From assembly GCA_964016885.1 (NCBI GenBank), contig OZ024740.1:84754001-84818000 (forward strand): a stretch of DNA of 64,000 bases, written 5' to 3'. The notes under the pieces are model-generated. The model was given only the letters and a program-made list of their open reading frames with translations, searched no databases and was not told where the DNA came from. A program made the translations under genes and the position numbers. This document shows positions 8,754 to 18,687 of the stretch, piece after piece. Source of the stretch: Eledone cirrhosa (taxonomy: Eukaryota). The stretch's first letter is position 1, and each line of letters starts with the position of its first letter.

Positions 8754-8902
8754 ATATATATATATATATATATATATATATATATATATATATATATATA
8801 TATATATATATATATATACGTTATTCCGGGTTGAGTCGGAGGTAACCACAGTAAGTAAGGTACTCAATACATTGCAGAGTATAACAGTTTTAATATAGAT
8901 GA

Positions 8903-8951
8903 GATTCTACAGGACTAGAACTGTTTCATTCTTTAGAAATCATCAGGAATC
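8903..8951 (-). ncRNA. Minimal type I hammerhead ribozyme (Naiad pLTR)
   Basis: GATTC-CTGATGA-T TTCT aa AGAA T-GAAA-CAG ttctagtc CTG-TA-GAATC; canonical core. Confidence 0.88.
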
Positions 8952-9523
8952 TGGGTATCAAAAAATAAATATGGTATTTATAGGTCTCTTCAGGTGGTAG
9001 GAGAGGGTAGGGAGTGGGATGGGTGTAGGTCATTGGTTGATAGAAAAGGGAATTCATTAAAAGCTAATTCTTCAAAGCTATAGTTTATATTTATAAACAA
9101 GTTCAGGATGGGGTGCCACTCCTTATTTTTAAGTTTCTCTTAAGCTAACAATGCCTAGATTTCAGGTGTCTATAAGATCATTGGGGTCAGTCATGGTTGA
9201 TGGATTTAAAGAAAAGGGAGATTCTTTAAAAGCTAATTCTTTAAGGTTCTACTAAGTGACAAAGGCCTAGAGAATTCTATAGACCAGTTCAAAATATTGA
9301 GTGCATATCATACCATTATCTTCAAATTTCTCTTAAACTATTAAACTATATTCCAAAAGTCAACAGACACATTCACAAACACACTCACTCTCATACTCGC
9401 GCGCACCCACATACATCCACACATACATATATACATATATATATATATAAACACACATACATATACAGATACATATACACACATATACATATATATATAT
9501 ATATATAGTTTTAATATAGATGA

Positions 9524-9572
9524 GATTCTACAGGACTAGAACTGTTTCATTCATTAGAAATCATCAGGATTC
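9524..9572 (-). ncRNA. Hammerhead ribozyme (left arm of hairpin)
   Basis: Reverse complement reads CCTGATGATTTCTAATGAATGAAACAGTTCTAGTCCTGTAGAATC. Confidence 0.75.
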
Positions 9573-9616
9573 CTGATGATTTCTAATGAATGAAACAGTT
9601 CTAGTCCTGTAGAATC
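9568..9616 (+). ncRNA. Hammerhead ribozyme (right arm of hairpin)
   Basis: GATTC-CTGATGA-tttctaatgaat-GAAA-CAGttctagtcCTG-TA-GAATC. Confidence 0.82.
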
Positions 9617-9939
9617 TCATCTATATTAAAACTGTTATACTCTGCTATGTATTGAGTACCTTACTTACTGTGGTTACCTCCGATTCAACCCGGAATAACG
9701 TACTATATATATATATATATACACACATATATACACATATATACATACACACATACATATATACATATACATATATATATACACACACACATACATACAT
9801 ACATACATACACCTACATATACACATATACACACATATACACATATACATATACACACACATATATATATATATATATATATATATATATATATATATAT
9901 ATATATATATATATATATATAATATATATATATATATAA

Positions 9940-14533: not shown

Positions 14534-15578
14534 CTAAAAGTATTTGAAAGTTGCAAAGTTCTTGTGCATGCAGTTCGGGCAGTGTTCAGAGAGTTTGTTC
14601 ATTAGCGGGCCCTTGGCGAATATAATTTCGTAGCTCTCTGAGATACAAAGGTCGCAGCCCTTGTGTCCTCCGTTGTAAGAGCGCGCTTTCTGGAGTATTT
14701 TCCATTTAAGCGTGAAGGGGGTGGAGTTCCTTTTGAGATCCCAAACATGGGAGGCGAGTGTTGTCTGGTTTGATTTGTCCGGTCTTCTGAAGGAGTGGGT
14801 ATGGGCATACCAACGGGTCTTAAAATTATTGGAAGTCATGCCGATGGAAGTTTTTTTGTTATTGCAATCATCGGTGCCTGAGATGACATCGCATTTGTAT
14901 ACGATATCATTTGTGAGGCATTTGTTTTCAAGTGGGCATGCTTCCTTATTTAGGCAATTAAACAAAGCCCCAGTCCGGGGATTGGTTTCGGAGGTGGTTG
15001 GCTTATTTAATTTTTTAGAATTGTGGTTGGCTATATTCCTAGCTAGGTTAGGTGTAGTGGAGTAGGAGAGTCTTATTGTGTTCTTATTAAAGATGGTGTA
15101 GTACCTATGTTGTATGGGGAAGTGTATTTTCAGCAAAGTGAAGAAAATCCTAACTATCGGTGTAGAGACCTCTCTATTGAAGGGAGGGTTGTACCAGCTA
15201 ATCTGCCTATGCCTATTCCTCCTCTGCATTCTTGCGGTGGTTTCTAGGTAGGTTATCTTTTCTTTAAATCCGCTGAGGGCGAGGGCGTCATTGTAGTAGG
15301 AGGCAGAGGCGTTAAAAATATCTTTGTTGGCGGAGAGGCCAGATATTCTAATAGAGACGCTTTTTACTAAGTTATCAGTGATGTTTTGGGGGTAGTTTGA
15401 ATTAACATTAATATATCTAAGGGACTCGTTAGGTTTGTGGTACGGGTAATAGAGGGAAGTATCTAGGTCGAGAGTGACATCTAAGAAGTTGGCCCTAGTC
15501 AAATTAGATTCTATAATTATACTAAATCCTAGATTAGAGAAAAACGAGCTTAAGTTTTTCCGAAACCCATCGGTGGTT
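14534..15578 (-). pseudogene. Naiad-clade PLE ORF 3' part: RT C-terminus (NFLDVTLDL), thumb, GIY-YIG endonuclease
   Basis: WYNPPF, NCLNKEACPLENKC, IVYKC...SIGMTSNNFKTRWYAH, CDLC and CMH follow the CxC/Cx5C/CxxC/CxH pattern described for Naiad PLEs; 5'-truncated. Confidence 0.85.
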
Positions 15579-17156
15579 CTGATAACTTAGTAAAAAGCGT
15601 CTCTATTAGAATATCTGGCCTCTCCGCCAACAAACATATTTTTAACGCCTCTGCCTCCTACTACAATGAATCCCTCGCCCGCAGCATTTTTAAAGAAAAG
15701 ATAACCTACCTAGAAACCACCGCAAGATTGCAGAGGAGGAATAGGCATAGGCAGATTAGCTGGTACAACCCTCCCTTCAATAGAGAGGTCTCTACACCGA
15801 TAGCTAGGATTTTCTTCACTTTGCTGAAAATACACTTCCCCATACAACATAGGTACTACACCATCTTTAATAAGAACACAGTAAGACTCTCCTACTCCAC
15901 CACACCTAACCTAGCTAGGAATATAGCCAACCACAATTCTAAAAAATTAAATAAGCCAACCACCTCCGAACCCAATCCCCGGACTGGGGCTTTGTGTAAT
16001 TGCCTAAATAAGGAAGCATGCCCACTTGAAAACAAATGCCTCACAAATGATATCGTATACAAATGCGATGTCATCTCAGGCACCGATGATTGCAATAACA
16101 AAAAAACTTCCATCGGCATGATTTCCAATAATTTTAAGACCCGTTGGTATGCCCATACCCACTCCTTCAGAAGACCGGACAAATCAAACCAGACAACACT
16201 CGCCTCCTATGTTTGGGACCTCAAAAGGAACTCCACCCCCTTCACGCTTAAATAGAAAATACTCCAGAAAGCGCGCTCTTACAACGGAGGACACAAGGGC
16301 TGCGACCTTTGTATCTCAGAGAAATACGGTCACTATGGTTATATGCGTATATTTATTGAGTACTAATTTGTATGTATATATATGTGTGTATATATATATA
16401 TGTATATGTGTGCATGTGTGTGCGTATGTATATATGTATACATATACACATATGTGCATGTGCATGTGCACACACGTGCACGTGCACGTGCACACAGGTA
16501 TACACATGTGTATCTGCAGGTGCATACATGTACATGCATACACATGCGCACGCACACACATGTACACGTGTATATATATGTATATATATGTGTATATATA
16601 TATGTATGTGTGTGTGTGTGTGTGTGTATGTGTTTGTGTGGTTCTGTGTGTGTATTTATATGTGTGTATGTGTGTATATATGTGAATATGTGTGTGTGTG
16701 TGTGTATATATATATATATGTGTGTGTGTGTGTGTGTGTGTGTGTGTGTGTGTGTGTGTGTGTGTGTGTGTGTGTGTGTGTGTGTGTGTGTGTGTATATA
16801 TGTGTGTATATGTGTGTATGTGTGTATATGTGTATATGTAGGTGTATGTATGTATGTGTGTGTGTCTATATATATATGTATATGTATATATGTATGTGTG
16901 TATGTATATATGTGTATATATGTGTGTATATATATATATATATATATATATATATATATATTCAGGTTTGAGGTTCACCACTGTATAGAGCTGGTCTATT
17001 CCGTATGGTCAATCGTAATGCAATAATATAGAGAGTACTCAACGTAAAGCAGTTCAACCGTCTTTGTTTTTGTAGTTAAATTTACACAAATCCAGCCTCC
17101 TGTCATTTCATTATAATTATTATATATATATATATATATATATATATATATATATA

Positions 17157-17313
17157 TAACGAAGGAAATGTGGTAAGGAACCAGGTGGACCATAACGCAC
17201 CAAAGTACTCAATACTTGAGGTAGTAGAGTGGGTAATAGGAACCAGTAAGGCCCGTCCAGAATTAGCCGTCGAAACGGCTTGAGCTCAGCTGTCGGGGTC
17301 TTACTGGTTCCTA
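17157..17313. mobile_element. Small fold-back insert with 3' half of a hammerhead
   Basis: 18-bp inverted repeats 17237-17254 / 17296-17313; GAAA-CGGC ttgagctca GCTG-TC at 17272-17294; left tail; (TA)n flanks. Confidence 0.6.
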
Positions 17314-17919
17314 TATATATATATATATATATATATATATATATATATATATATATATATATATATATATATATATATATATATATATATATATATGTAT
17401 ATGTGTGTATATGTATATGTATGTGTGTTTATATATATATATATGTATATGTGGATGTATGTGGGTGCGCGCGAGTGTGTGAGTGAGTGTGTTTGTGAAT
17501 GTGTCTGTTGACTTTTGGAATATAGTTTAATAGTTTAAGAGAAATTTGAAGATAATGGTATGATATGCACTCAATATTTTGAACTGGTCTATAGAATTCT
17601 CTAGGCCTTTGTCACTTAGTAGAACCTTAAAGAATTAACTTTTAAAGAATCTCCCTTTTCTTTAAATCCATCAACCATGACTGACCCCAATGATCTTATA
17701 GACACCTGAAATCTAGGCATTGTTAGCTTAAGAGAAACTTAAAAATAAGGAGTGGCACCCCATCCTGAACTTGTTTATAAATATAAACTATAGCTTTGAA
17801 GAATTAGCTTTTAATGAATTCCCTTTTCTATCAACCAATGACCTACACCAATCCCACTCCCTACCCTCTCCTACCACCTGTAGAAACCTATAAATACCAT
17901 ACTTATTTTTTGATACCCA

Positions 17920-17968
17920 GATTCCTGATGATTTCTAAAGAATGAAACAGTTCTAGTCCTGTAGAATC
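17920..17968 (+). ncRNA. Minimal type I hammerhead ribozyme (Naiad pLTR, right arm)
   Basis: GATTC-CTGATGA-TTTCTAAAGAAT-GAAA-CAGTTCTAGTCCTG-TA-GAATC. Confidence 0.88.
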
Positions 17969-18687
17969 TCATCTATATTAAAACTATATATATATATATC
18001 CGTATTTGTCTGTAAGAACGAGAGAGAGAGAGAGAGAGAGAGAGAGAGATGAGAGAGAGAGAGAGAGAGAGAGAGAGAGGAGAGAGAGAGAGAGAGAGAG
18101 AGAGAGAGAGAGAGAGAGAGGGAGAGAGAGAATGCTATACTCAATAATTAAACTGTTTGCAAAAATTCTCATTAAATTAAAATTGACCTCAAAGTTGCTG
18201 AAAAAATAGGAAATCCTTGTGGTATTGTCGTGAAATTCAATAGCTCAGACAAGTGACAGTATTATGTTCCGTTATCAACATCTCTCAATGAAGTGAAATT
18301 TACTCTTTGTTAAAGAAATAGAAAAACAACCTACCGCTTTTTGTTAGCCAGTCACGAACGAAGAAGATAGTTTCTTGAAACTGGAAATAAATTTGTCATA
18401 CTTAAGGGAAAATGTAATCGTTCTGGGTTTTAGTTTCCAAATAACATTTTCTAATTCAGAAATTATACCCGGTAAAATTCTTTCTAAGTCTTATCTGCGT
18501 GTAAAATTATATCAACTGGTGGATCTTGGCATAAGCAGACTAAGCTTTGTTGGTAGCTGTTAAGAGTGAAACCTATTGCGGATAGGTTTCACTCTTAACA
18601 TTGCCTGATAACATAGATCTAATTTTAATGTCAAATTTATCTTTTGAAATTATCTTTCCTTTCTTTGAGAATTGCCATCAATTACTA

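Follow-up and report, generated by a model that had tools for sequence, protein, structure and literature searches.

The DNA analysed here is a 64,000-nucleotide stretch of the genome of Eledone cirrhosa (assembly GCA_964016885.1, contig OZ024740.1, positions 84,754,001 to 84,818,000 of the forward strand), hereafter the window. Positions 8817 to 17985 of the window are occupied by a mirror-image element of approximately 9 kb, each arm of which carries the end of an open reading frame (ORF) assigned to a Penelope-like element (PLE), compound microsatellite sequence and a non-coding terminal unit. The family to which the ORF belongs is referred to as family A, the terminal unit as unit B and the smaller nested inserts by the letters C to H, or by position. 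In the feature list below, RT stands for reverse transcriptase and UTR for untranslated region.

8753-8818: (TA)33 run adjoining the tail of unit B
8817..8885, minus strand: tail of terminal unit B, about 68 bp, with the motif ACTC-N11-GAGTAC at 8880-8860
8886..9500, minus strand: terminal unit B, left arm, with a GT-rich leader, a non-coding body and a TATA-like box; type I hammerhead motif with its core at 8946 and predicted cleavage at 8908
9507..9702, plus strand: nested mini-hairpin of family B, with 63-bp perfect arms, a hammerhead motif at 9573 and the tail on the right
9703..9940, minus strand: microsatellite 2 and (TA)39, left arm
9941..10675, plus strand: nested insert D, with a GT-rich tract and the tail motif GCTC-N13-GAGCAC at 10606, TA following 47 nt beyond
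10720..12363, plus strand: nested insert C, with 192-bp perfect inverted ends and a tail at 12254-12363; it contains a Hydra endonuclease C-terminal remnant (10906-11103), a microsatellite (11290-11800) and a degenerate hammerhead core (12102)
12431..12675, plus strand: nested hairpin E, with 76-bp perfect arms and a tail with ACTC-N12-GAGTGC
12676..13051, minus strand: microsatellite 1 and a TA run, left arm
13052..13590, plus strand: nested insert F, with a 59-bp perfect direct repeat and a Hydra-type hammerhead motif at 13236
13591..14322, minus strand: compound microsatellite of the left arm, 732 bp, with the same G-rich polarity as the rest; a right-arm loss or a left-arm gain
14323..14533, minus strand: unique 3' region of family A, with GAGTAC half-motifs at 14423 and 14348
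14534..15581, minus strand: 5'-truncated Hydra-clade ORF (P0001), left arm, with RT thumb, linker and GIY-YIG
15579..16322, plus strand: inverted, shorter ORF copy, right arm, with an in-frame stop at 16253-16255
16323..16961, plus strand: deleted UTR remnant, microsatellite 1, (TA)7(GT)38 empty site and microsatellite 2, right arm
16962..17120, minus strand: nested insert G, with a TTGAGTAC half-motif only, 74 nt from TA
17157..17311, minus strand: nested insert H, a strong hairpin with the tail motif ACTC-N16-GAGTAC at 17230
17400..17985, plus strand: terminal unit B, right arm, tail-less, with the hammerhead core at 17925, predicted cleavage at 17963 and (TA)7 at the end

Symmetry and divergence of the two arms

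A preliminary description of this DNA had held that the symmetry extends well beyond the ORF pair, in four paired blocks, and that the left arm alone has the tail. A self-comparison by unique 16-mers, combined with pairwise alignments, recovered the four mirror blocks at about the positions proposed and confined the tail to the left arm (8817-8885). The ORF arms (14635-15378 on the minus strand and 15579-16322 on the plus strand) align without gaps and are identical at 727 of 744 positions (17 differences), while the arms of unit B (8886-9421 and 17450-17985) are identical at 529 of 536 (seven differences). Together, the two blocks differ at 24 of 1,280 bases (1.9%), and an age difference between them is not distinguishable (17/744 versus 7/536, Fisher p = 0.22). 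The pairs formed by microsatellite 1 (12719-13007 and 16398-16684) and microsatellite 2 (9714-9860 and 16797-16934) reached local alignment scores of 238 and 115, respectively. Unrelated microsatellite pairs from 16 tracts of the window scored between 9 and 104, which indicates that the compound microsatellites of the two arms are true homologues.

The codons that differ between the ORF arms comprise 13 non-synonymous and two synonymous changes, with a neutral expectation of approximately 22% synonymous, and the arm differences look neutral. At no fewer than eight of the 17 differences, those among the 40 rows listed from the read comparison, the right arm carries the letter found in the reads; mutations have probably accumulated on both arms. 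Multi-base differences occur in clusters at 15269-15271 and 15286-15287 versus 15670-15688, and template switching is a possible source of these.

Two stretches, of about 190 and 62 bp, are missing from the ORF end and UTR of the right arm, with short microhomologies at both joints, and this arm has no counterpart of the 732-bp microsatellite. The sequence flanking the palindrome is not symmetric, and both outer ends adjoin TA, in runs at 8753-8818 and 17986-17999. At the centre, two truncation points 200 bp apart meet directly, with an overlap of about 3 nt (CTG). In sequencing reads mapped to 14300-15600, with runs of small share set aside, family A is abundant and its copies share the unique 3' region (14344-14535); other family A copies in the reads extend past 15581, so that the centre is a truncation junction. 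The stop codon at 14536 of the P0001 ORF is absent from the reads.

An assembly artefact has to be weighed at this point, be it a fold-back chimera of a read or a head-to-head join of two haplotypes, as the divergence of 1.9% and the unequal inserts of the arms are reminiscent of two alleles. Alleles would, however, have the tail and the outer flanks in common, which the arms do not, and a fold-back chimera would give near-identical arms. We consider an artefact extremely unlikely.

Clade of the ORF and nature of the terminal unit

P0001 matched 18 proteins of 614-724 aa, in each case along the C-terminal half and with 34-56% identity, and 12 of these 18 homologues were aligned with it in 13 rows. 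In this alignment the RT core of the homologues (YRDD) lies upstream of the part equivalent to P0001, accompanied by RWK/RWR and DKT, and P0001 itself spans the RT thumb, a CxCx5C linker and a C-terminal endonuclease with CxxC and CxH around the E and N residues (CDLC...E...N...CMH). P0001 has no CxxC, as part of a CCHH motif, between the GIY and YIG positions. The linker reads CNCLNKEAC in the right arm; the left arm has F in place of the first C, a position at which the reads carry a C codon. Pfam returned no GIY-YIG match for P0001 and nothing useful for five homologues either. Similarly, a Foldseek search with an AlphaFold model of mediocre quality (predicted local distance difference test score 66.6) gave nothing at E ≤ 0.001, the non-significant matches being GIY-YIG nucleases only (T4 EndoII with E = 0.5, I-TevI and Hpy188I). 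The GIY-YIG assignment rests on the alignment because neither search gave significant confirmation.

The domain order and motifs of P0001 match, by eye, the Hydra rows of Fig. S7 in PMC8557442. The account of the clade given there lists as its marks a C-terminal GIY-YIG, a CxCx5C linker, a CxxC/CxH endonuclease without CCHH, the RWK and DKT motifs and a divergent RT4. The last three are absent from the truncated copy and present in its homologues, and on this evidence the ORF is assigned to the Hydra clade of PLEs. According to the same account (Craig et al., 2021), the clade also shares with the element its WYNPP/FNKNT/SYS blocks; members such as Penelope-13_HM and Hydra-1_Obim likewise show insertion into (TA)n and a one-sided tail, and Penelope-13_HM has a 5'-truncated inverted copy, as the element does. 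They also have a CTGATGAT...TGAAAC hammerhead, to which the putative ribozyme motif of unit B corresponds. The element differs from the clade as described in its tail of about 68 bp, not 30-40, and in its seven nested inserts, and it appears to represent a different family from Hydra-1_Obim, by visual comparison only.

The preliminary description had named the element Naiad. This name is wrong, given the C-terminal endonuclease, the absence of CCHH and, if unit B belongs to family A, its canonical hammerhead motif. Naiad elements resemble it in their (TA)n preference and in their inverted structure with a pseudo-long terminal repeat (pLTR), but their endonuclease is N-terminal and has CCHH, they carry a DKA motif where the homologues of P0001 show DKT, and they lack a canonical hammerhead. 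Their domain order is the opposite of that in the homologues. Other marks of Naiad, a CxC between endonuclease and RT and an IFD, concern parts lost from this 5'-truncated copy.

Unit B carries a putative type I hammerhead ribozyme of canonical motif, with predicted self-cleavage. The motif scan was relaxed to allow the U-U at the base of stem II of Hydra ribozymes, as the strict version missed unit B. The relaxed scan found no hammerhead motif in family A's own 3' end of approximately 190 nt. In an Rfam search of 5000-19000 at E ≤ 1, no hammerhead was among the 150 of 172 matches listed, which were only microRNA-like, fell on microsatellites and hairpins and lay under the gathering score throughout. 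No Hydra protein match or coding remnant was found in unit B, and the prokaryote genomes and viral contigs searched contained none of its exact motifs.

Symmetry is lost after 17985, 22 nt past the predicted cleavage site, and the tail-less end of the independent 196-bp hairpin at 9507-9702 falls on the very base that ends unit B at 8886/17985. Pieces of B also stand beside other neighbours, at 7415-7629 (lacking the ribozyme) and at 36912-36963 (the ribozyme under a different upstream sequence). Upstream of the homologue at 7415 there is a GT-rich tract, and no family A ORF was found there. The sequence TATAAATA occurs about 30 nt upstream of the unit B hammerhead motif (17890-17925) and at the matching place in the homologue (7619-7627), and could possibly serve as a pLTR promoter. 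TATA-like tracts occupy a similar place in several Hydra loci.

Nested inserts, TA sites and a conserved tail motif

Seven inserts had been proposed within TA runs, five in the left arm and two in the right. All of them are present, each between TA runs, and they make up 3,673 of the 9,169 bp of the element. Six of the seven bear a PLE mark, be it a ribozyme motif (9507 and F), the full tail motif (9507, D and H, with a variant in E) or a Hydra endonuclease remnant (C); G has the half-motif only. A comparison of arm divergence with that inside the nested hairpins had been suggested, with the expectation that the latter would be lower, and it was: the perfect repeats of four inserts (63, 192, 76 and 59 bp) contain no differences in 390 positions, where the rate between the arms (24/1,280) predicts about seven (p = 0.003, or p = 0.002 when insert F is omitted). 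The nested inserts are likely younger than the palindrome.

The arms were also expected to act as filled and empty controls for each other, and do so at three homologous TA sites, of which all three are filled in the left arm and one in the right. TA content is 219 bp in the filled state versus 15 bp in the empty state at site 2, and 83 bp versus 13 bp at site 3; site 1, filled on both arms, holds 37 bp with one insert and 158 bp with two. This 9.2 kb contains 24 of the 51 TA blocks of the window, with 27 in the other 54.8 kb, making them approximately five times denser here. No excess of inserts per TA run over the rest of the window was demonstrated.

TA-flanked hairpins are also found outside the element. 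The insert at 8323-8752 is PLE-like as well: its inverted ends are short, it contains a TATTGAGCAC half-motif, and it has the TA run at 8753-8818 in common with the 9-kb element. A near-perfect 200-bp hairpin lies in TA at 5851-6250, a single arm of which recurs with 99% identity 33 kb away (38768-38970). The third, at 40630-41912, has 251-bp inverted ends that are 3.6% different and adjoins a GIY-YIG remnant with CxxC on the minus strand (40009-40413), which matches Pfam PF01541 (another PLE clade) and is followed by a microsatellite.

A conserved motif of Hydra tails, RCTC-N9..16-GAGYAC, lies just 3' of the tail-less end, with sites in the window at 8880, 9639, 10606, 12591 and 17230. From 44 strong ribozyme motifs with at least 85 nt downstream, 35 non-redundant flanks were obtained, and 25 of these contain RCTY-N8..26-GAGYA at 38-63 nt past the cleavage site; the mean in 1,000 mononucleotide shuffles was 0.36 and the maximum three, for a pattern drawn up with these loci already in view. 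In the window, the motif follows the tail-less ends of B, E and C at a distance of 6-7 nt, and TA follows the four full motifs of the element at 41-47 nt. An outside control was assembled from the best 79 of 541 Hydra-type metagenome matches, 77 of them with a stop codon, and among its loci are five tail-less partners whose sequences part 2-13 nt before the motif. The motif also occurs upstream of ORFs, which makes the tail the start of the next unit. Its outer pair is G-C in the control loci and A-T in B, H and E, the sole compensatory change seen. In an alignment of the tail stem (A2), in which the ACTC of B is out of register, 98.6% of positions were paired and no pair had changed on both sides, and the isolated B tail stem showed no stability beyond that of shuffled sequences (z +0.89). 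By eye, GAGCAC can be recognised in the published consensus sequences of Hydra-2_Amil, Hydra-1_Ajap and Hydra-2_Ajap; the main text of PMC8557442 contains no occurrence of GAGC, hairpin or stem-loop, and a search of the literature outside subscription journals and Repbase notes found no published description of the motif. It is predicted to position the start of reverse transcription.

Origin of the element and of its microsatellite

The best explanation of the locus, in which we place even confidence, is a single insertion of a Hydra-clade element into a TA run, probably copied twice from an RNA chimera of ORF end, captured microsatellite and unit B, and followed by seven younger TA-targeting inserts. 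The evidence argues for one PLE insertion rather than a segmental inversion, because the tail-less arm and the independent 9507 hairpin terminate at one identical base. The single insertion envisaged in the preliminary description is thus supported by this shared end, together with the 5'-truncated inverted copy at the 5' end and the tail at a single end, which is the layout of inverted PLE insertions as presented in PMC8557442. The same head-to-head arrangement also appears in PMC8969392. A segmental inverted duplication through fold-back repair, of a locus into which A, the microsatellite and B had been inserted separately beforehand, would accord with the mosaic nature of the duplicated unit and with the microhomology that bounds the right-arm deletions. 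It is nonetheless very unlikely, as the symmetry stops exactly at a tail-less site that the 9507 hairpin also uses, TA lies at both outer ends between asymmetric flanks, and the published PLE layout is reproduced.

In experiments in vitro with the Poseidon element of the anole, both target strands are reported to be nicked and extended, the tail being the stretch between two RT starts (PMC11167929). If the single insertion proceeded likewise, one complementary DNA (cDNA) would have begun at the tailed start (8817) and another at the tail-less start (17985), both running from B across the microsatellite and on through the ORF end to stop 200 bp apart, where they would have been joined via approximately 3 nt of microhomology. 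The template may have been a read-through from a family A copy, ending near 14330, into an adjacent B end led by the microsatellite. Every later insert would split one TA run into two longer ones, and the targets would thereby multiply locally. As described by Frangieh et al. (2024), PAc Poseidon of Anolis resembles the element in its tailed and tail-less ends, AT-rich target and stem-loop near the RT start; however, it belongs to another clade and starts in an AC-rich stem-loop inside the ORF, whereas the candidate here is the non-coding RCTC/GAGY stem.

That the element carries its own TA target, as had been claimed, holds true in that the microsatellite with its TA runs, present in both arms, was in the copied template. 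It is slightly more likely to be a captured spacer than the UTR of the family. Capture is favoured by the GAGTAC half-motifs of family A directly before the microsatellite and by the B modules found beside other neighbours. A precedent is Pen1_Av of Adineta vaga, for which Arkhipova et al. (2013; PMC3846280) report spacers of 0.9-1.5 kb, thought to be captured host DNA, between the ORF and the 3' pLTR, and, for related families, inverted copies placed head to head and junctions with microhomology. Compared with the spacers so reported, that of the element is a microsatellite that holds the clade's own target and is present in both arms.

Alternatively, the same single Hydra insertion may reflect a family A, or a subfamily of it, whose stable 3' UTR consists of the microsatellite plus B, so that every copy exports TA targets, as the preliminary description had proposed under the name Naiad; we regard this as quite possible, if short of probable. 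Under this alternative B, with its canonical ribozyme and without a coding remnant, would complete the ribozyme-free 190-nt end of A; the GT-rich tract before the B homologue at 7415 and the layout of insert C would also be accounted for, and copies of Penelope bearing microsatellites are reported in shrimp (PMC7878876). In contrast, a canonical ribozyme motif follows the stop in 40 of the 77 control loci, at a distance of 44-515 nt (median 134), and many of the 37 others end too soon to show one, while this distance in the element, after removal of the inserts, is about 1.3-1.5 kb and includes the microsatellite. A microsatellite tract occurs in one of these 40 UTRs, leaving 39 of 40 loci with short, microsatellite-free UTRs, as the published Hydra-1_Obim consensus has by eye. 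The element thus exceeds the short-UTR trait of the clade (under 3 kb, short 3' UTR), which is descriptive and not diagnostic. The lack of an A ORF upstream of 7415 and the tail-type half-motifs in the end of A likewise count against a family UTR.

Several observations weigh against a single insertion from a template with a captured microsatellite. Family A has only half-motifs and no hammerhead motif of its own, which fits B as its true end; in insert C, a microsatellite separates the Hydra ORF remnant from the end of the insert; and the GT-rich strand is the sense strand in four units (A-B, C, D and the homologue at 7340), which fits a UTR trait of the whole lineage. No second family A copy with its flank was seen, the read mapping omitting 14300-14344. 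The lowest-energy RNAfold structure of B differs from the hammerhead fold (z -0.87 and -0.04), and the model of two cDNAs comes from another clade. Homogenisation of short inverted repeats could make the inserts look younger than they are, and no internal clock is available for D, G, H or the 732-bp tract.

The window holds further repeats. Long ORFs at 21799-23532, 28227-33168 and 49167-52798 resemble by eye a Helitron Pif1 helicase, a long interspersed element of L1/Tx1 type and Ty3/gypsy, respectively. A 220-bp perfect inverted repeat with a 530-bp spacer lies at 34183-35153, and a TA-associated repeat cluster is present as a dispersed inverted copy (26104-26868 and 61827-62437), the end of which we take to resemble Helitron/DINE-type elements. 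The abundant repeats of the window that are like short interspersed elements presumably resemble those of octopus.

The literature already documents inverted copies, tails, TA targeting and microsatellites borne by Penelope elements, and the architecture, well preserved here, is a known one, mostly explained by known PLE biology. In penaeid shrimp, microsatellites are reported to have moved with recent Penelope copies and later changed length (Yuan et al., 2021; PMC7878876); that account, as drawn on here, does not extend to relatives re-inserting into the repeats so carried. What is new is the RCTC-N9..16-GAGYAC motif inside the tail. We suggest, tentatively and as an unlikely possibility, that the lineage has fixed a GT/TA compound microsatellite in its transcribed 3' region, exporting its own target and amplifying microsatellites of the host in a feed-forward loop, and that the RCTC-N9..16-GAGYAC stem is a clade-wide signal that positions both RT starts. 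The tail motif offers a testable cis element for the poorly understood priming of PLEs and a cheap marker of Hydra ends in repeat annotation. The locus represents a natural filled/empty experiment, which shows that TA targets can be copied by a Penelope-like insertion and that filled sites finish richer in TA. If the microsatellite UTR is indeed a family trait, it would provide a concrete engine for microsatellite-rich invertebrate genomes.

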